A stretch of 16,747 nucleotides of DNA, taken from Fidelibacterota bacterium (GTDB taxonomy: Bacteria > Fidelibacterota > Marinisomatia > Marinisomatales > JABMOV01). How positions within the stretch are numbered: the first letter of the stretch is position 1; every line of letters begins with the position of its first letter. Below the pieces are notes generated by a model. The model had not been told where the DNA came from. It saw only the letters and a program-made list of their open reading frames with translations, and did not search any database. The position numbers and the translations under genes were made by a program. Of this stretch, positions 6,667-16,747 are shown in pieces. The stretch is taken from assembly GCA_046861395.1 (NCBI GenBank), contig JBHHUC010000048.1, positions 1-16,747 on the forward strand, read 5' to 3'.

Positions 6667-7317
6667 ATGAAATCGTTATCGTTTATCCTGCTGCTGTCAT
6701 TTGCGGTAGGACAAAATCTGCAACTGCATTATGAATTAGACCAGAACAGGCGTTACCTCGTATCCACGTTGGAAATGTTCCAGCCGGATAATTGGGGGTC
6801 AACCTTTTGGTTTGTCGATATTCAGTACAATGATACCGGGACGAAAAGTGCTTCCCTGGCCTACCTGGAACTGGCTCGTTATTTTCGATTCCCTTTCGGG
6901 GATAAAATCCAAACAACGATCCAGTACAATGACGGTCTGGCCCTTGGTTATGGCTTAGGACAGATCTGGCTGGGGGGTCTCAATTCCCGCGTGGAACTCC
7001 CACTTTTACCCCTAACGGTTGATATTCTGTATCGCCACCAGTCAGGAACGACGTCCCATGATGTTCAGCTCACCGGTGTATGGTTTCAGCCGTTTTTACA
7101 TGGCAAAGCCACTTTCACCGGATTCTTTGACCTCTGGACTGCGGATCGGTCCGAGTCAAGTGGGAAAGACTGGATCTTTCTCAGTGAACCCCAGCTCTGG
7201 TATGGCCTGTCGTCCCAATTGGCCGTAGGGGGAGAAGTTCATATTTCCTATAATTTTCCCCTTCCTAATCAATCCTGGGATTTCTATCCAACCCTGGCAG
7301 TGAAATGGGAATTCTGA
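6667..7317 (+). CDS. DUF5020-family outer-membrane beta-barrel (Tsx-like nucleoside channel fold, putative)
   Basis: Signal peptide then QNLQLHY..., STLEMFQPDNWGSTFWFVD, DVQLTGVW, FTGFFDLW, FLSEPQLWY, VGGEV..SYNF; ends PTLAVKWEF (beta-signal with terminal Phe). Family recognised from memory of its motifs. Confidence 0.8.
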   Translation: MKSLSFILLLSFAVGQNLQLHYELDQNRRYLVSTLEMFQPDNWGSTFWFVDIQYNDTGTKSASLAYLELARYFRFPFGDKIQTTIQYNDGLALGYGLGQIWLGGLNSRVELPLLPLTVDILYRHQSGTTSHDVQLTGVWFQPFLHGKATFTGFFDLWTADRSESSGKDWIFLSEPQLWYGLSSQLAVGGEVHISYNFPLPNQSWDFYPTLAVKWEF

Positions 7318-7338
7318 TCCGATTCTGACAGATGAAAT

Positions 7339-7364
7339 AGAATGCCCGCCTTGGCGGGCATTCT
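7339..7364 (+). terminator. Stem-loop after DUF5020, probable intrinsic terminator
   Basis: Perfect inverted repeat AGAATGCCCGC-CTTG-GCGGGCATTCT starting 22 nt after the stop; the U-tract is weak. Confidence 0.6.
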
Positions 7365-7495
7365 GCTATTCGGTGGTCCCCGGAGGGGACGGGACTGGAT
7401 TGGGGCACAGGAATCCTTGGTACAATTATTTTTTATTCCGCTTCCCGGAATGTTAATAGATTATCCCGGCCTGAAATGGAGAATACAGGATATTC

Positions 7496-9178
7496 ATGAC
7501 AAAACGTAACCAGGAATTATTGCTTCCCACCGACCCAGCACGGATCAGGGATTTGCTGGAACGGGCCGGGATCGGTCGCTGGGAATGGGAAATTGCGACG
7601 GGTAATATCCGCTGGGATACAGTCCTGACCGGAATAGCCGGCTGGCCGGAGGAGGAGGCTCCGGACATTGATGTTCTGAAATCAATGATAGATCCCATTG
7701 ACCGGCGACGACTGGCCGCCGTGGTGAACGATATGCTGAATAACGGACACGGAAAAATCCAACTACGGTTCCAACGGCAGGATGGGGATTTACGGTATGT
7801 AAGCATAGACGGCATTGTGGAATTCGATCCCGACAAATCACCGAAACGGGCTTTCGGCTATGTCCAGGATTTGACGGCTCTACACATGGCTGAAATTGAA
7901 ATTGAAAAAAAGAACGATGATCTGATAATCATTAATTATATCAATGAAAAATTGAACAGTGGGGCCGAACTGAAATCGATTTACCAGGATATCCTGGACT
8001 GGTTTTCCTTTCAATTTCATTCCTCCGGTCTGGCCATCGGGTACCGGAATGAAACTGATGCCATCATTCGTATTGTATTTCAGTCGTTTAAGGACCTGGG
8101 GCCGTATAAAACAAAAATGATCAACGGTTTTCCCTCTGAAATACGGATTGACAACAGTCCCGTGCATCAGGACATCATGAAAACCAGACGCATGAAGGGC
8201 ATACCTTTTTCCGTCCTCTGGCATGACATTTCTCCGGGACAGATACCGCTTCAGGTTTCCTTGCTGGAGGATGACAATCCTTCCCCTGATTCAGGTGAAA
8301 GTTTGGACCAGGTCTGGCTGGTTCCTCTCTTTATCGAGGAAAATATTATCGGCATTATCTATGTGTTCGGCCTGAGGGCCTTGACGGTGAAGGACCAGTT
8401 ACGTATTGAAGCAATTTCCAATCAGATTTCCGGGATCGTGGTGCGAAAACGAACCGAAGACCGGATCCGGTTTCAGCGTAAGGAATTAAGTCGTCTGTCT
8501 CAGCGACTGTTTCAGGTTCAGGAGGAAGAAAGGCGCAATTTATCCCTGGAATTGCACGATGAACTGGGCCAGTCCCTGACGGCCATGCGGATTAATCTGT
8601 CAGCCGTACAGCAGGCGGTGGAGCAGGTGGCCGATGAACGCACGCTGGCCCGCATCCGGGATACAATCCGGATGATTGATGAAAAGGAAGAACAGATTCG
8701 TGATATTTCCCTACTCCTGCGGCCTTCCATGCTGGATGACCTGGGACTGGAACCTACCCTGGAATGGTATATCAATTATTATAAAAAACGAAATAAGGAG
8801 TCAGTCCGCTTTCATTATAATTTACAGAATACTGTTCTTCCCCCTGATGTGGACGTTGTCTTGTACCGGGTCATTCAGGAAGCATTGACGAATATTTCCC
8901 GCCATGCCAGGGCCACCCGGATTACCATCCAATTGATGGAACGGGAAAAGGAAATCCTGGTGGAAATTCGTGATAATGGCATTGGTTTTGATTCCCGTGA
9001 AATCCTGACTCACCACGGTAAGCGCAAGACTGCCGGTCTGGTGGGAATGCACGAACGGGTGAAAATGGTAACCGGATCCCTGGACATATTATCCATACCC
9101 AACAAAGGAACCACGATTCGTATCCTGATTCCGAAGGAGAAAACACATGACGAAAATTTCCGTCCTGATCGCCGATGA
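7496..9178 (+). CDS. Cytoplasmic sensor histidine kinase: PAS + GAF-like + HisKA_3 + HATPase_c (NarX/UhpB class)
   Basis: PAS-type start GIGRWEWEIATGNIRWD...IDPIDR...GYVQDLT; H-box QEEERRNLSLELHDELGQSLT; LRPSMLDDLGL; N-box QEALTNISRHA; G1 DNGIGFD; G2 GLVGMHERV; no TM segment. Confidence 0.93.
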   Translation: MTKRNQELLLPTDPARIRDLLERAGIGRWEWEIATGNIRWDTVLTGIAGWPEEEAPDIDVLKSMIDPIDRRRLAAVVNDMLNNGHGKIQLRFQRQDGDLRYVSIDGIVEFDPDKSPKRAFGYVQDLTALHMAEIEIEKKNDDLIIINYINEKLNSGAELKSIYQDILDWFSFQFHSSGLAIGYRNETDAIIRIVFQSFKDLGPYKTKMINGFPSEIRIDNSPVHQDIMKTRRMKGIPFSVLWHDISPGQIPLQVSLLEDDNPSPDSGESLDQVWLVPLFIEENIIGIIYVFGLRALTVKDQLRIEAISNQISGIVVRKRTEDRIRFQRKELSRLSQRLFQVQEEERRNLSLELHDELGQSLTAMRINLSAVQQAVEQVADERTLARIRDTIRMIDEKEEQIRDISLLLRPSMLDDLGLEPTLEWYINYYKKRNKESVRFHYNLQNTVLPPDVDVVLYRVIQEALTNISRHARATRITIQLMEREKEILVEIRDNGIGFDSREILTHHGKRKTAGLVGMHERVKMVTGSLDILSIPNKGTTIRILIPKEKTHDENFRPDRR

Positions 9179-9806
9179 TCATACCATCCTGCGGAAAGGA
9201 ATTCTGTCGCTGCTGGAAGATGAACCGGAGATCACTGTGGTGGGAGAAGCCGCCGATGGTATTGAGGCGGTTCGCCTGGCACGGAAACTAAAGCCGCAGG
9301 TCGTGGTGGTGGATATTTCCATGCCCCAAAAAAACGGTCTGGAGGCCACCCGGGAAATCCTGCGCAGCAATAAGGCCACCAAGGTCCTCATGCTTTCCAT
9401 GCACGGCACCCAGCAATACATTGTTAACAGTCTCAAAGCCGGGGCTTCCGGTTATATCCTCAAGAAAAATGCAGTGGAAGAACTGATAGCCGGCATTCGT
9501 ACCGTCATTAAAGGAAAACGGTATTTAAGTCCGTCCGTGTCAGATATTCTACTGGAGGATGTAGTGGGATCGGACTGGAAACCGGAGGATATCGCGGAGC
9601 CGGTCCTCAGTAGCCGTCAGAAGGAAATATTGCAACTGATTGCAATGGGCAACACCATGAATGAAATTGCAGAATTACTCCACTTAAGTGTCTTTACCGC
9701 CACCACACACCGCAAGATGATCATGAAAAAACTCAACCTGCACAACACAGCCGACCTTACCCGTTACGCCATTCGTAAAGGACTGGTGGACATTAACGAC
9801 GAATGA
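9147..9806 (+). CDS. NarL/LuxR-family DNA-binding response regulator
   Basis: REC residues ADDH, VVDISMP, MLSMH, GYILK; LuxR HTH LSSRQKEILQLIAMG...EIAELLHLS...THRK.IMKKL; SD AAGGAG; 32-nt overlap with the kinase. Confidence 0.95.
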   Translation: MTKISVLIADDHTILRKGILSLLEDEPEITVVGEAADGIEAVRLARKLKPQVVVVDISMPQKNGLEATREILRSNKATKVLMLSMHGTQQYIVNSLKAGASGYILKKNAVEELIAGIRTVIKGKRYLSPSVSDILLEDVVGSDWKPEDIAEPVLSSRQKEILQLIAMGNTMNEIAELLHLSVFTATTHRKMIMKKLNLHNTADLTRYAIRKGLVDINDE

Positions 9807-9826
9807 TATTCTGAGGGGCGGATTCC

Positions 9827-11509
9827 ATGGATTATATTCAACGGATTTTCAATAAACCCTGGCTGGTGGCGCTATTGGTGGGAACCGCCATTCACGGTTC
9901 CATGGAACTGGGTGCCTTCCTGCTTCTGGGACACAGTTATCTGAGGTCTCTGCAGGAAAACCTTACTTACGGTATGATCCGGTTTATCGTTCCCTATCTC
10001 ATTCCCTTCATCATTGCCAGTATCAGTCGTTACCTGGTGAATCTATCGGTGCGGCGGAACATGGAAATGTTTCCCGAGGCTAACCCGGACATGATTCTCC
10101 GGCTTGACGGTGACGGGAATCGTATCTATACCAATCCCATGACCAGGGAATTCCTGGATAAATTTAAGTTGCCCGAAGCGGAACTGACGGCCCAATTATA
10201 TGCGCTGGCCCGGGAAAACGGCCGGGAAAACAGGGAACGATTGTACACCATTCCCTTTCATGACCATACCCTGACGGTGAATTATCAGTTTCATGCCGAT
10301 TCGCAGGAATATTTCTTCTCAATTCGAGATGTAACTCGATTACAGGCTTCATACCGGGAAATTGAAGAAAGTCGGAATCGCATCTTGGCACTTACGGGTC
10401 ACATTGATCATATTTTTGCGGCCTTCCATCAAAAATCATTCAACCTTGAGAAAACGTACAGTACGACATTACAGGAAATTCTCTGTGATCAGGGCGGAGG
10501 GCATGATAAACCGGTGGCCATTTTGCTGGCTCATCGGGGGCAAGACAATATTTTACGCGGCAATATATATCAGCGGAGAAAGGGGAAACTTAGCGTTTCA
10601 CAGGAATTGACAATTGATCCGCGTAAACGGACTTATGCCATATTAATGGGTGAGAGAGAAGTGTATTGGGAGAACTGGAACAAATTCAACAACAGTCATG
10701 AATCGTTCATGGCACAGTTTCATCGGGATGTGCGAAAAATAATTCCTGATTTCACCGGCTATGCTACCTATACCAGCAGCGATATTTCGGCGCTGGGCTT
10801 TTTCCGGCGCACCGTCGTCAATGAGAATCATGCCGTAGTGCTGAAAACTATCACCATCATTGCCAAGGTACTGAACCTGATCAGTGAGCAGGTCGATTCG
10901 ACCCGGGAGGCGTTTCGCTACGCGGTACGGGCTCTGGCGCGGGCCGCAGAAGTCAATGATGAGGATACGGGCGATCATATCCTGCGCGTCAATGATTATT
11001 CCCGTCTCCTGGCCCAGAAGCTTGGTCTTGACAGCCAATTTATCGATGAAATTCATTACTCGGCTCAGATGCATGATGTAGGGAAAATTCACATTCATCC
11101 CGATGTTCTCCGGAAAAAAGGAAAACTGACAGGGGAAGAAATTGCCGTCATGAAACGCCATCCCCTCATTGGAGCCCGGATCCTGGGAAATCAACCGGCT
11201 TTAACCATGGCACATAATATTGCCCTGTATCATCATGAACGCTATGACGGTACTGGCTATCCCCACGGTGTGGCGGGCCGGGACATTCCGCTGGAAGCCC
11301 GTATCGTGGCCATCGGCGATGTCTATGATGCCCTGCGCCAGGAGCGCAGTTATAAGAAAGCCTTTTCCCATGACGAAGCGGTGGCAATCATCCGGGATGG
11401 AGACGGGCGTGTAATGCCGGAGCATTTTGATCCGGATATCTGGCAACTGTTTACCGAATTTCATGGGGAATTCGAAACCATCTTTGATACCTACCGACCA
11501 ACGGACTGA
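9827..11509 (+). CDS. Membrane-anchored HD-GYP domain protein (putative c-di-GMP phosphodiesterase) with PAS-like domain
   Basis: Two N-terminal hydrophobic helices; PAS-like FPEANPDMILRLD.DG..IYTNP; DEDTGDHILRV, MHDVGKI, MKRHP.IG, HHERYDGTGYP, ARIVAIGDVYDAL...RSYK, HFDP. Confidence 0.92.
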   Translation: MDYIQRIFNKPWLVALLVGTAIHGSMELGAFLLLGHSYLRSLQENLTYGMIRFIVPYLIPFIIASISRYLVNLSVRRNMEMFPEANPDMILRLDGDGNRIYTNPMTREFLDKFKLPEAELTAQLYALARENGRENRERLYTIPFHDHTLTVNYQFHADSQEYFFSIRDVTRLQASYREIEESRNRILALTGHIDHIFAAFHQKSFNLEKTYSTTLQEILCDQGGGHDKPVAILLAHRGQDNILRGNIYQRRKGKLSVSQELTIDPRKRTYAILMGEREVYWENWNKFNNSHESFMAQFHRDVRKIIPDFTGYATYTSSDISALGFFRRTVVNENHAVVLKTITIIAKVLNLISEQVDSTREAFRYAVRALARAAEVNDEDTGDHILRVNDYSRLLAQKLGLDSQFIDEIHYSAQMHDVGKIHIHPDVLRKKGKLTGEEIAVMKRHPLIGARILGNQPALTMAHNIALYHHERYDGTGYPHGVAGRDIPLEARIVAIGDVYDALRQERSYKKAFSHDEAVAIIRDGDGRVMPEHFDPDIWQLFTEFHGEFETIFDTYRPTD

Positions 11510-12975: not shown

Positions 12976-14370
12976 ATGAGTCCTTGGGATCTTGACGTTA
13001 ACCTGCGAACGGTCATTATGGATTTACTCTATTTGAGTATGTTTATCCTGATAGGTACGATCCTGCGCCGTTATATTAAATTTTTCCAAACCTACCTCGT
13101 CCCTAATAATTTTATCGGTGGGTTCATCGCTCTGCTGGTCGGAACCCAGGGATTGGGCTGGGTCGATCTGGCATCGGATCGCCTGGTGCTTTATGTCTAT
13201 CATTTTCTGGCCCTGACCTTTATTTCTCTGGGACTGCGCCAGGAGAAAAAGAAATGGGGGAAAGGTCCGCTGAGCAAATCCATTGCCGCCCTCATCTCCT
13301 ATCTAATTCAGGGCCTGATTGGGCTGAGTGTGGCCTTGGCCCTGGTCTATACCATAAATCCGGATCTCTTCGTTGGGATCGGGCTGGTTGTTCCGCTGGG
13401 GTTCGGCATGGGACCGGGTTTGGCGGCCACCCTGGCCGGAAGCTGGGAAAAGTTTGGTTTTGAAGGCGGTGCCCAGGTGGGATTGACCTTTGCGGCGATC
13501 GGGTATGTATATGCCTTTTTTGTCGGTATGGCCATTATCAATTGGGGCATCCGGACCGGAAAGACGGCCTTCATTAAAGGTGTTGACCACATTTCCACCG
13601 ATATGCGTCGGGGCATCATCAAGAACGGAACACCGGGTGTCGCCGGTCATTTGCCCCAGTCCACCGAAGCCATCGAACCGCTGGCATTTCACCTGGCCCT
13701 GGTGGGTACCGTTTACCTTCTGACCTATTTCATTGTGAATTTCCTGGCCGGAGTCATGGTCAGTAATGGCCTGGAAGGATTCGTAGCGACGCTGTGGTCT
13801 TTCCATTTTGTCGTGGGACTGCTCCTGGCTTTGCTGGTCCGGAAAATCCTGGATAAATCAGGCCGGGGATATCTGGTGGATAACGGATTGATGACACGGG
13901 GCATGGGATTATTCCTGGATTATCTGGTGGTGGGCGCCATCGCCGGGATCAGTTTTACCATTGTACTGCAGTATTGGCTGCCCATTCTCATCATGTCCCT
14001 TTTGGCGGGACCCGCCACGCTGGTGTGGCTCTACTGGGCCTGCCGTCGGGCGTTTGACGACTATCATTTTGAACGGTTTGTGGAAATATTCGGAGAAATG
14101 ACCGGAACCATCAATTCGGCCCTGGTTTTGTTGCGGGTTGTGGATCCGGAATTTGACTCACCGGTGGCGGAGGATGCCGTGTACGGCAGCGGGATCAGTC
14201 TGTTCCTGGGGTTCCCCCTGTTGATTACTCTGAATGTACCATTCGTTTATTTTGACGGCGCCATGAAGGGCTACTGGGTGGCGGCCGGTATTCTGCTGGC
14301 ATACCTGATCCTCCTGTTGGTGGTCTGGCGACTTTCCGGATTCCTGAAGTGGAAACCGGTTATTGACTGA
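12976..14370 (+). CDS. Sodium/glutamate symporter (GltS/ESS) family transporter; substrate uncertain
   Basis: 464 aa with about 12 hydrophobic segments; LRR.I.FFQ.YLVP..FIGG, GFGMGPG, GLTFAAIG, FG..TGT...ALVLLRVVDP; SD AGGAGG. Confidence 0.8.
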   Translation: MSPWDLDVNLRTVIMDLLYLSMFILIGTILRRYIKFFQTYLVPNNFIGGFIALLVGTQGLGWVDLASDRLVLYVYHFLALTFISLGLRQEKKKWGKGPLSKSIAALISYLIQGLIGLSVALALVYTINPDLFVGIGLVVPLGFGMGPGLAATLAGSWEKFGFEGGAQVGLTFAAIGYVYAFFVGMAIINWGIRTGKTAFIKGVDHISTDMRRGIIKNGTPGVAGHLPQSTEAIEPLAFHLALVGTVYLLTYFIVNFLAGVMVSNGLEGFVATLWSFHFVVGLLLALLVRKILDKSGRGYLVDNGLMTRGMGLFLDYLVVGAIAGISFTIVLQYWLPILIMSLLAGPATLVWLYWACRRAFDDYHFERFVEIFGEMTGTINSALVLLRVVDPEFDSPVAEDAVYGSGISLFLGFPLLITLNVPFVYFDGAMKGYWVAAGILLAYLILLLVVWRLSGFLKWKPVID

Positions 14371-15184
14371 GAACCGGCGCTTCCGTCAGCTGTTCCGGGT
14401 TTTCCAGATATTTACGAACATGGTGAGCCAGGGCGCCGCCGTGGTAACCGTCCATGATGCGATGATCCATGGTAGCCGTGAAAGGCATGATGGTACGGAT
14501 CACGATTTCACCATTTCGAACCACCGGCTTTTCTTCTGCCTTACCCATGATGATCACCAAAGGCACATTGGAGGCCGGTAACAGAGCCGCCATACCCGTA
14601 CTGAGCCCGTGGGTACCGATATTGGACAACACCACGGATCCGAACATATCATGTTTCAGACCCAGGGATGGAAATTCGAGGCCCAGCGTGTGATGGAAAA
14701 ACTTGATAATAACGAAGACCCAACGGCGAAAAGGCCAGGGAATCATGCCCAACACATTCTTGTTCCCCATTCCTTCCTGCTCTGAGCCCTGCCGGCTGCG
14801 AGCGGCTTTGTCCCGGATTTCAGTGGCAATTTCATAGACCGTTTTTTCGTGGGCCCGGCGAACTCGGACACTGGACATTTCCTGTCCCCGGGACATGTTC
14901 ACGGACACCGCTACGATGACATCTTTCCGGGGGATGAATCGGCCGCGGCTCAGGTAGCAGTTGATTTCCGGCAGGTTGTGCCCGATGGCACGGCCGATGG
15001 CCGCCACGGCCAGATGGGTAAAGGTAATTTTCTTCCCCGCCGCCCGTGTTTTTTTCACCAGCCGTTCTGCTGCGGTGATATCAATTTCCACCGTTCCGTA
15101 CACGCGGCTGTCTTTGGGGACTGTGTATAACGCTGTGGCCAGGCGGCGCCAGGGTGAATTATAAATTGTTTTATTATCTGACAT
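14360..15184 (-). CDS. Stand-alone 2-oxoacid dehydrogenase E2-type acyltransferase catalytic domain
   Basis: VEID.T, ITFTH...AAIGRA....PEINC, LSNIG, KPVVRNGEIVIR, catalytic DHRIMDG; no lipoyl or E3-binding domain. Confidence 0.88.
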   Translation of the reverse strand: MSDNKTIYNSPWRRLATALYTVPKDSRVYGTVEIDITAAERLVKKTRAAGKKITFTHLAVAAIGRAIGHNLPEINCYLSRGRFIPRKDVIVAVSVNMSRGQEMSSVRVRRAHEKTVYEIATEIRDKAARSRQGSEQEGMGNKNVLGMIPWPFRRWVFVIIKFFHHTLGLEFPSLGLKHDMFGSVVLSNIGTHGLSTGMAALLPASNVPLVIIMGKAEEKPVVRNGEIVIRTIMPFTATMDHRIMDGYHGGALAHHVRKYLENPEQLTEAPVLSQ

Positions 15185-15725
15185 GGAGACAGTTTACAGA
15201 AATTCCTCTCTCGTTTGAAGGAGGAAATTCAGAGATTTCGGATGGCTGAACCCGGGGAAAAAGAGGGACGGACTTTTCGTGCCTGAATGATGGAATTCAA
15301 TCCATTCCACCACCCATAGTGACATTTTCCATAATGATCGTGTTTGACATAATCCTGATTTTTCCCAGGACGTTTTTCACTAACCGCCGGTCCTCGTTTA
15401 TTGTTTTGAAATGTTTTACATTACACCGAACCAGAATGACGATTCATTGTATGATGCCGGAGGGTTGAAGATAGAGAGGCCATGATGAGCCTGAAATTAT
15501 AATTGCATCAAACCTGGCCACTTGCTGGACGTGATCCCCCAGCGTTGTTTCAGGCCTGGCATAGCACGTGGCCGGTATGTTTGTGTTTATTGCCATAAAC
15601 GGATTATTATTTATCCAAAACGTATTACACCCTGATTGGGCACCGGCAGATTTTTATTTTTCTATCGGAAATTCTATTCCACGTTTTGGTCCGATGTGAT
15701 CCGCCAATGAAAGACGTGAAACCGC

Positions 15726-15754
15726 TTGAATTTAAGATATTATTATATTAATAT
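15726..15754 (+). promoter_or_regulatory. Possible sigma70-type promoter upstream of cheD
   Basis: TTGAAT-N17-TAATAT; the context is very AT-rich, so a chance match is plausible. Confidence 0.3.
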
Positions 15755-15982
15755 GTTTCATGGTCTGGTACTCCTCAATCTGTCTTCGGATTTGTTCGGA
15801 CATATTATCTCAACTTCGAGAAAATCCAGGCCTAATTCAAATTCCAAAATGTTTACCGCATACGATTGAATATTTCAAATATAACCACACTATTTCTATT
15901 TGTGTTTATCAGGTCCCTGCTCATGGTTTAAACTCCCATTTCGCAAATCTGTATCGCAGATGTTAAATGCATTTTTAGATCG

Positions 15983-16522
15983 ATGCACACCGGTAAACAA
16001 ATAGTAAATCATAATTCAGAAACAATTGTTGCCACAGGATTTCTGGCCACAGGCTCAGGAGAGGGATTGATAAGAACAACGCCTTTAGGCTCCTGTGTGG
16101 CTGTTATTGCATATGATACTACTACAAAGACCGGCGGCATTGCCCATATCATGTTACCCGGCAGATCACCGAAAAAATGCAAAGAGGGTGAAAACAAATA
16201 TGCCCAAAACGCCATCTCGAATTTAATAAACGATTTAATCCTTTTGGAAACATCAACAACGAATATTGAAATTTGTCTTGTTGGCGGGGCAAATGTCCTG
16301 AAAAAGAAATATGATAATATTGGCCGTGACCTTATTCGTAGTATTTTAGAAAACCTAAAACAGCAACACCTTATCGTTTCTGCCTCATCACTGGGGGGAT
16401 ACAAGAGACGAAACACCAGTCTGCAATTAAGTTCGGGAATTGTTACAATGGCGGTTGGTGACGAAAGCGAGCAAATATTATATCATTTTGGTGTTAATTC
16501 ATATCCGGAAAGTTTGTCATGA
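15983..16522 (+). CDS. cheD: CheD-family chemoreceptor glutamine deamidase
   Basis: Catalytic Cys in TTPLGSCVAV, catalytic His in GGIAHIMLP, KYA..AI..L, VGGANV, NIG, LGG..RR; 179 aa. Confidence 0.92.
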   Translation: MHTGKQIVNHNSETIVATGFLATGSGEGLIRTTPLGSCVAVIAYDTTTKTGGIAHIMLPGRSPKKCKEGENKYAQNAISNLINDLILLETSTTNIEICLVGGANVLKKKYDNIGRDLIRSILENLKQQHLIVSASSLGGYKRRNTSLQLSSGIVTMAVGDESEQILYHFGVNSYPESLS

Positions 16523-16747
16523 AAAATGATTTAAATAAAACCAAAGCACAGCTTATCACTGAACTGATAGAATTACGTCAAAAAAGTAAAGAGCAGGAAG
16601 AGAAGCTAAAGGCCTCCAATCAACAGCTTGAAGCAGCCAACCAGCAACTTGAGGCCAACAACCAACAATTACGAGCATCAGAACAGCAATTAAGAGCGGC
16701 AAACCAGCAGCTTGAAGCAAATAATCAGCAGTTGAGGGCAGCTGAGG
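16519..16747 (+). CDS. N-terminal part of a coiled-coil protein with Gln-rich heptad repeats (probable signal-transduction protein); runs off the window
   Basis: Not in the ORF track because no stop falls in the window. ATG overlaps the cheD stop (ATGA). Reads MKNDLNKTKAQLITELIELRQKSKEQEEKLKASNQQLEAANQQLEANNQQLRASEQQLRAANQQLEANNQQLRAAE. The KTKxQLIxEL..LRQ start is common ahead of PAS/kinase modules. Confidence 0.85.
   Translation, partial: MKNDLNKTKAQLITELIELRQKSKEQEEKLKASNQQLEAANQQLEANNQQLRASEQQLRAANQQLEANNQQLRAAE
16621..16746 (+). repeat. Coding tandem repeat, 6 x 21 nt, encoding QQL(E/R)A(A/N/S)(N/E)
   Basis: Units: QQLEAAN, QQLEANN, QQLRASE, QQLRAAN, QQLEANN, QQLRAAE; codons vary at synonymous sites. 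Confidence 0.9.

Follow-up and report, generated by a model that had tools for sequence, protein, structure and literature searches.

The final two genes of the window, which is an entire 16,747-bp contig from a 2.37-Mb, 94% complete genome (G000), pair a CheD from a clade of its own with an open reading frame (ORF) that carries a tandem array of Gln-Gln heptads. Comparative evidence supports the conclusion that the array closely tracks this CheD clade. Judging from these sequences, we think it probable that the pair forms a two-gene module in which the specialized CheD would convert Gln residues of the array to Glu in one direction, so that the coil loosens and kinase output changes for as long as no new kinase is made. 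The pairing is apparently unpublished: a full-text literature search, working from titles and the starts of abstracts and covering subscription journals and supplements poorly, found no description of CheD with Gln-array kinases. The features at the end of the window are as follows.

15983-16522, plus strand: cheD, 179 amino acids, PF03975 at 54 bits against a cut-off of 25; non-chemotaxis CheD clade
16076..16147, plus strand: catalytic triad codons aligned to 2F9Z (Thr32, 16076-78; Cys38, 16094-96; His55, 16145-47)
16295..16300, plus strand: Val105-Leu106 of CheD, where CheC-binding CheDs carry Met-Phe (B. subtilis M101/F102)
16519..16522, plus strand: ATGA overlap joining the TGA of cheD with the ATG of the next ORF
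16519..16747, plus strand: start of the partner ORF, 76 codons up to the contig edge, from a gene that probably encodes a cytoplasmic PAS sensor or hybrid histidine kinase
16519..16611, plus strand: N-terminal charged helix ahead of the array, read from the sequence as free of a transmembrane (TM) segment or sensor domain
16612..16740, plus strand: six Gln-Gln heptads, to be taken as at least six since the contig stops inside the array

By its domain, the protein belongs to the CheD family, exceeding the curated PF03975 cut-off, and it scores under all NCBIfam CheD equivalog cut-offs. Its AlphaFold model (pLDDT, 84) has 2F9Z as the top Foldseek match (E value, 2e-14; TM scores, 0.71/0.82). In the alignment to this structure, Cys38, His55, and Thr32 correspond to Thermotoga maritima Cys27, His44, and Thr21, the triad described in the available text of PMC7022378. 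The catalytic triad is intact, as the first-pass annotation had noted for its Cys and His, and we predict that the protein is a glutamine deamidase. In place of the Met-Phe pair retained in CheC-binding CheDs (PMC3513319, available part) and characteristic of the CheC/CheD/MCP adaptation system, the window CheD has Val105-Leu106. Both the gap of about 800 bp ahead of cheD (measured at 798 bp) and the overlap of its stop with the next start were seen as first annotated. Translational coupling, proposed from that overlap, is common among related loci but is not obligatory, the genes being unlinked in one group of five genomes.

The A-x-x-Q-Q-x-x-A motifs begin at ORF residues 32, 39, 46, 53, 60, and 67, in exact heptad register. 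When the ORF was shuffled 200,000 times, five or six motifs in register were never obtained and the maximum, four, appeared once; positions and shuffles together bear out the six-motif array originally reported. Residues 1 to 31, read from the sequence, are free of any hydrophobic span, in agreement with the initial view that no TM segment or sensor domain precedes the sites. The same N-terminal start is found behind cheD at five other loci (L006, L008, L010, L012, and L013). At the DNA level, the 21-nucleotide units of the array are just 62 to 73% alike and use both CAA and CAG, and all four CAA/CAG combinations occur among 184 Gln pairs from 33 related loci, which indicates that the repeat is maintained at the protein level. 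DNA slippage as the origin of the array was ruled out by the diverged units, the mixed codons, and the shuffles.

CheD deamidates Gln in chemoreceptor coiled coils at short sites of the form (A/S)-x-x-(Q/E)-(Q/E)-x-x-(A/S), as given in the first-pass annotation, and all six window sites take this form. A longer consensus for chemoreceptor modification sites, also built around an [EQ][EQ] pair, is given in the available part of PMC6829392 and was applied here as [ASTG][ASTG]xx[EQ][EQ]xx[ASTG][ASTG]. None of the six window sites fits it in full, because position -4 is K, E, or R; four fit when that position is ignored. Across the family, 148 of 1553 array sites fit the long consensus.

The contigs of the source genome were searched for a continuation of the ORF, and none was found. 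Logan contigs from one sample cross the junction between cheD and the ORF and end within the repeat; the window may itself derive from this sample, which is hence not independent. In four runs of one sample, summed contig depth is about tenfold higher over the array (window positions 16652-16747), which is consistent with similar arrays in co-occurring organisms of that sample.

The nature of the partner was approached through longer relatives of the 76-residue ORF, a search that gave 654 proteins, with domains counted in the best 120. HATPase_c is present in 102 of these best 120, and MCPsignal (PF00015), CheR, and CheB are present in none. The closest longer homologue (P0121), 66% identical over all 76 residues, is a hybrid kinase of 1096 amino acids with PAS, GAF, HisKA, HATPase, and REC domains. 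Within the same best 120, the kinases are of the HisKA, HisKA_3, and HisKA_2/HWE classes and have differing sensors, and in 86 the first QQ site lies no more than 60 residues from the start. Arrays across the family range from 2 to about 11 heptads, and some proteins have two of them; the family also includes complete small kinases, such as L029 with about 445 residues. In 1625 homologous heptads with L at d, A at f, and N or E at a, Gln occupies b in 93.6% and c in 96.7%, and the pair is QQ in 1487 and EE in 3; the heptads were anchored on L, A, and N/E, and the set was selected with a QQ query, so the Gln percentages are biased upward. These homologues support identifying the window ORF as the start of a PAS-type sensor kinase rather than of a methyl-accepting chemotaxis protein (MCP), as first suggested; its kinase domain is inferred, since the ORF is cut at the contig end. 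An ordinary MCP inside a che cluster was considered and rejected, given that the source genome has no MCPsignal match, that the best 120 homologues are free of PF00015, and that che genes were found at none of the 46 loci of the CheD clade.

To place the window CheD, 276 homologues were gathered at an E value of 1e-20 and 88 were aligned for a profile; the best 120 of the 276, the query itself aside, are 44 to 70% identical to it. The clade profile separates the fetched loci at a score gap of 148 versus 114 bits. In a tree of 121 rows from 123 loci (two proteins shorter than 120 residues were left out), built by quick IQ-TREE with midpoint rooting, a branch with SH-aLRT support of 99 sets 46 rows apart from the rest, and FastTree agrees. 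According to this tree, the window CheD belongs to a separate CheD clade. The array lies within 6 kb of cheD in 31 of the 46 clade rows and in none of the 75 others, counts that include some nearly identical rows and in which no more than 32 of the 78 low-scoring loci reach at least 1.5 kb downstream. Of the 15 clade rows without a nearby array, 8 end within 1.3 kb of cheD and 7 fall in a single branch, that of genome G186. Queries for CheW, CheB, CheR, CheC, MCP, and the CheA N terminus found che genes near cheD at none of the 46 clade loci versus 59 of 76 others and, among loci of at least 5 kb, at none of 25 versus 24 of 25.

At an E value of 1e-30, 214 clusters (50% identity) are reached with the clade CheD. 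In the best 150 of their representatives, Cys (145/146) and His (148/149) are conserved, Ala replaces the third triad residue in 37 of 145, and the equivalents of M101 and F102 are Val in 146 and Leu in 147 of 150; the Met-Phe pair is present in 45 of 75 CheDs outside the clade. An active-site loop of the form S-P/A-L/I-G-S-C is specific to the clade. Named records of clade CheDs or array proteins come from Bacteroidota, Nitrospirota, Cloacimonadota, Planctomycetota, Deltaproteobacteria, Thermotogaceae, and Flexistipes; the strain Flexistipes sinusarabici DSM 4947 encodes a clade CheD. The CheDs of same-order relatives were tried as orthologues and set aside: 60 relatives yielded four, all of the ordinary kind encoded in che clusters, and these fall outside the clade.

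Some loci have peculiarities of their own. In the G186 branch (L096-L100, L030, and L034), the gene behind cheD encodes a lone receiver protein, PAS and GAF kinases lacking an array lie on the flanks, and the array kinase is encoded elsewhere. The most divergent clade member (L053) has a HAMP-QQ sensor on one side and a kinase and a receiver on the other, in a locus where genes resembling a release factor and ribosomal S2 can also be read. Apparent frameshifts, attributable to assembly error or decay, leave cheD in two pieces at L012 and break an array kinase inside its array at L013:10514-14144.

The association extends to whole genomes. We searched 883 genomes from three phyla (a sample of 401 Bacteroidota, 231 Nitrospirota, and 251 from the organism's own phylum), every set both with the CheD profile and for exact matches to a DNA pattern of two heptads; the reversed pattern, used as a control, gave zero matches. 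Pooled, the array occurs in 17 of the 18 genomes with a clade CheD and a clade CheD in 17 of the 19 with an array, compared with an array in none of the 106 genomes with an ordinary CheD only; in these counts kin are not independent, most genomes are incomplete MAGs, and three positives were search centers. With the search centers left out, the array is present in 14 of 15 clade-CheD genomes. The positives spread over four families of the organism's own phylum, two Bacteroidota groups, and Nitrospirota, and the outcome matched a prediction set down before the results were seen. The genomic association of QQ-heptad proteins with cheD anticipated by the first-pass annotation is thus borne out for this clade and not for ordinary CheDs.

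By phylum, the picture is similar. In the Bacteroidota sample, where an E value cut-off of 1e-35 hid ordinary CheDs, clade CheD and array occur in the identical 6 of 401 genomes. Among Nitrospirota, the array is found in two of three clade-CheD genomes, in 0 of 82 with an ordinary CheD only, and in 0 of 146 without CheD; in the one miss (G636), the contig ends 406 bp past cheD, inside a sensor resembling the one in G064 and G638. Within the organism's own phylum, the array is present in all nine clade genomes (eight with a full cheD and one with a partial gene at a contig end), none of 24 with an ordinary CheD only, and 2 of 218 without a CheD match, and it immediately follows cheD in seven genomes besides the window. 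The two arrays without a CheD match belong to G799 (79% complete), whose array kinase has no cheD upstream, and G818 (66% complete), whose array is at a contig start. In the order of G186, any CheD is found in 5 of 91 genomes, the same five that have the array (the DNA pattern was run on 86 of the 91), and in genus g88 three genomes carry both clade CheD and array and one (G771) neither. Physical linkage varies: the two lie about 39 kb apart in G186, on a single contig, and in G106, 42 and 84 kb apart in G206, and on separate contigs in G146 and G334.

We next consider the chemotaxis and methylation genes of the carriers. The source genome has no match to the MCP (MCPsignal), CheW, and CheC of the chemotaxis CheC/CheD/MCP system or to CheR and CheB, all of which were matched in control genomes; CheA was probed there through its CheW domain only. 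Eighteen clade genomes were tested, namely, the 18 positives of the co-occurrence analysis minus G636 and G638 plus G062 and G063. No MCP was found in 11 of them, and none of MCP, CheR, and CheB was found in 10 (G000, G063, G106, G146, G186, G334, G748, G754, G776, and G813), including G186, an assembly of one contig. In G206, a CheB-CheR fusion is present and no MCP was found. Seven of the 18 have MCPs plus CheR, and a CheR domain is present in eight. CheC was found in none of five genomes tested. Chemotactic carriers, namely, five of the seven with MCPs and CheR (G064, G753, G759, G762, and G823) and G638, keep an ordinary CheD beside the clade CheD. The initial proposal had Gln-to-Glu conversion proceed with or without methylation; this resolves to without in at least 10 of the 18 tested genomes, and in the seven with MCPs and CheR, methylation is not excluded. 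A CheR query found no CheR-family gene in G000, where the window ORF is cut downstream, or at the 46 clade loci.

A further set of proteins complicates the relationship between the two partners. We saw 13 fusions of clade CheDs to sensors or kinases, of which three (L018, P0265, and P0307) have a QQ heptad. Six others (P0259-62, P0264, and P0331) are kinases with a different conserved 21-residue coil, of the A-S-L-N-I-M-E-D-L type and without Gln pairs, and four are PAS/PocR sensors or short coils with neither QQ nor this second coil. The idea that the array protein is the dedicated CheD substrate is too simple clade-wide, with 10 of 13 fusions lacking a QQ array. At L053, the gene order is QQ sensor, cheD, and other-coil kinase (6961-8334), one example from which QQ-less fusions may be able to act in trans. 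In L018:2524-7404, CheD is in frame with a multi-PAS protein bearing two QQ arrays; we discounted this fusion as Rosetta-stone evidence, since it contains an internal Shine-Dalgarno-like site and ATG and may reflect a lost stop. Four of 53 clade loci, against 0 of 76 others, encode sensors that lack a kinase domain and have a G/D-R-E-x-x-M/I-x-E/K-L/M-K coil at their end; such sensors (examples are L053:5525-6514, L040:3-566, L023, L180:617-1486, P0263, and P0265) may pair with second-coil kinases as split systems.

Upstream of cheD, the window has the following features.

15185..15982, no strand: intergenic gap of 798 bp in which GC drops from 0.50 to about 0.39; presumed promoter region
15392..15473, no strand: repeated element of about 82 nucleotides where the low-GC segment begins to border on its surroundings, present four times in the genome; no established link to the cheD pair
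14360-15184, minus strand: acyltransferase gene (E2-like), a stand-alone 2-oxoacid dehydrogenase acyltransferase catalytic domain of 274 amino acids
7496-11509, strand not given: PAS/HisKA_3 kinase, LuxR-type regulator, and HD-domain protein, 4.5 kb upstream

The final 1.2 kb of the window has a GC content of 0.393 against a genome mean of 0.483, equally low in 0.8% of windows, and three family relatives lack both cheD and the array gene, another gene adjoining the E2-like gene in them. The cheD-array pair was likely gained laterally, an inference from these two observations. Plasmid and viral contig searches gave zero matches. A promoter scan of the gap returned four promoter-like matches versus 2.6 expected, which is chance level, and Rfam gave no family at cut-off and a sub-threshold match only. 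The four copies of the 82-nucleotide element in the source genome (the window copy and those at C54 near 17584, C26 near 1930, and C97 near 1313) are 87 to 94% alike; each copy sits at a GC drop from about 0.50 to 0.54 down to 0.35 to 0.45, and the copies precede different genes (cheD, a gene that reads as type I HsdM-like, and two short genes). The three copies outside the window have about 120 further nucleotides in common, with no Rfam family at cut-off. The element is possibly an integration or promoter cassette. The E2-like gene is convergent with a membrane-protein gene without a Pfam match, a layout kept in the three family relatives, and no connection was found between the signaling genes at 7496-11509 and the cheD pair.

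The module that we propose consists of the specialized CheD and a sensor, with or without a histidine kinase domain, whose coil is made of tandem L-x-A-x-[N/E]-Q-Q heptads. The kinase would be made all-Gln, a neutral, methyl-mimicking state; Gln at b/c is described as mimicking methyl-Glu and tightening receptor coils (PMC4574943, available part). CheD would then hydrolyze Gln to Glu at b and c. Each chain of the window protein would thereby gain up to 6 to 12 negative charges, and these would loosen or unzip the dimeric coil and thereby shift the kinase/phosphatase output. With no CheR, the change would be irreversible and reset by new synthesis only. Since whole-heptad units preserve helical phase, arrays are free to differ in their number of repeats and to stand on either side of PAS, GAF, or HAMP domains; being N-terminal, the window array would serve to clamp the dimer rather than to relay a signal in line. 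The maintenance of Gln over Glu in the array (1487 QQ against 3 EE pairs in 1625) with mixed codons argues for this reading.

Other roles for CheD have to be weighed. It could be an allosteric partner or scaffold that binds the Gln coil, with deamidation absent or incidental. In B. subtilis, binding of CheD to receptors and CheC outweighs catalysis, and M101A nearly abolishes deamidase activity (PMC3513319, available part); the residue equivalent to M101 is Val in the clade. Nevertheless, Cys and His are near-invariant in the best 150 of the 214 representatives at 50% clustering, and the competitor CheC is absent in all five genomes tested. Moreover, the array keeps Gln, whereas CheC, which binds CheD uncut, has Glu at the matching place (PMC3513319). 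We consider a purely binding role unlikely.

A second possibility, to which we assign a low probability, is a reversible system in which CheD primes Gln to Glu and a methyltransferase, either a CheR encoded elsewhere or an unrelated enzyme, then methylates the product. CheD and CheR are described as cooperating in this manner on MCPs (PMC10107281, available part), the heptad frame of the array equals that of the Glu-Glu coil of a CheB-CheR fusion (L108), and 8 of 18 clade genomes have a CheR domain. Against this, CheR and CheB are absent in 10 of the 18, the single-contig G186 among them, and from all 46 clade loci and the best 120 of the 654 array proteins, results that cover CheR/CheB-type enzymes only.

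We regard as equally improbable that the clade CheD acts on another coil or protein, with the Gln array serving as a polar spacer that one mobile cassette carries along with it. The 10 fusions without an array, six bearing the different conserved coil, would fit such a scenario, as would the cassette-like presence of the pair in low-GC DNA that three family relatives lack. Yet clade CheD and array are retained together when unlinked, and the array occurs in HisKA, HisKA_2/HWE, and HisKA_3 kinases with different sensors, which argues against a single hitch-hiking gene; in addition, the gene order at L053, a single example, suggests that the fusions could work in trans. Finally, the enzyme might join an amine to the array Gln instead of hydrolyzing it, given that some CNF1/CheD-fold enzymes can transfer amines to Gln and that the clade has an active-site loop of its own. 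The CheDs described hydrolyze (PMC7022378 and PMC3513319, available parts), and we consider such transamidation highly improbable.

Compared with the chemotaxis CheDs of B. subtilis and T. maritima (2F9Z), the window CheD has the same fold, triad, and PF03975 domain, and its candidate sites are likewise helix Gln pairs with Ala at -3 and +3. It differs in belonging to a separate clade found away from che genes, with no MCP or CheC found in many carriers; in having Val-Leu for Met-Phe on the CheC-binding surface; in its apparent partner, a two-component kinase; and in scoring under the NCBIfam cut-offs. MCP adaptation helices likewise have an [EQ][EQ] pair at heptad b/c with small flanking residues (PMC6829392, available part), whereas the array is a perfect tandem run, is charged at -4, and is accompanied by MCPsignal in none of the best 120 of the 654 homologues. 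In Bacillus cereus, RsbM methylates the signaling helix of the hybrid sensor kinase RsbK and represses its output, so that there, too, a chemotaxis-type enzyme modifies a kinase signaling helix and sets output (PMC4574943). That enzyme is a methyltransferase and not a deamidase, no tandem Gln array is described in the portion of PMC4574943 available, and "CheD" and "deamid" have zero occurrences in that text.

Another parallel is with MAC1 and MAC2, attributed to Wuichet and Zhulin 2010 (via bioRxiv 10.1101/2022.05.07.491037 and PMC6943060, both in part), which combine a receptor-like coil and a kinase in one protein without MCP, CheA, or CheW and for which MiST profiles exist (PMC6943060). 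These proteins include or accompany CheB and CheR (bioRxiv 10.1101/2022.05.07.491037). Like them, 102 of the best 120 of the 654 array homologues join a coiled coil with receptor-like sites to a kinase, which in the window would lie beyond the contig end, and the frame is the same, with L at d, N at a, and the pair at b/c. CheB and CheR, fused in MAC1 and associated in MAC2, were found neither in G000 nor in 10 of the 18 clade genomes nor at the 46 clade loci. The MAC example has Glu-Glu, whereas the present array has Gln-Gln and CheD as its partner enzyme. Since searches for CheB and CheR in the carriers often found neither, the chemistry would run in one direction, unlike that of MAC. A CheB-CheR fusion in the carrier G064 (L108) has the same heptad frame with Glu-Glu; BLASTP of the array against the fusion coil is weak (E value, 0.007), so the heptad frame is the sole argument for homology to MAC. 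At the motif level, the resemblance to heptads of CheB/CheR fusions that was initially pointed out is real.

Taken together, the sequence comparisons indicate that the pairing is real and that it probably represents a form of receptor-style kinase modification. CheD is described as acting on chemoreceptors, and the receptor-style modification described for ordinary kinases (MAC and RsbK) is methylation; a branch that uses a deamidase by itself would add a third arrangement and, with no CheR, an irreversible one. To our knowledge, irreversible receptor-style modification is not known in two-component signaling. If true, the proposal corrects the label "chemotaxis protein CheD" in chemoreceptor-free genomes, and it offers an entry to MAC-type coils, called experimentally uncharacterized in the available part of bioRxiv 10.1101/2022.05.07.491037. 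More tentatively, the array may serve as a one-way covalent counter: CheD would convert the sites of each newly made kinase step by step, and the output would report protein age, cumulative time in one signaling state, or the ratio of deamidation to growth. Were this so, the module would be a sensor of growth rate or elapsed time in slow-growing bacteria, with array length setting its range.
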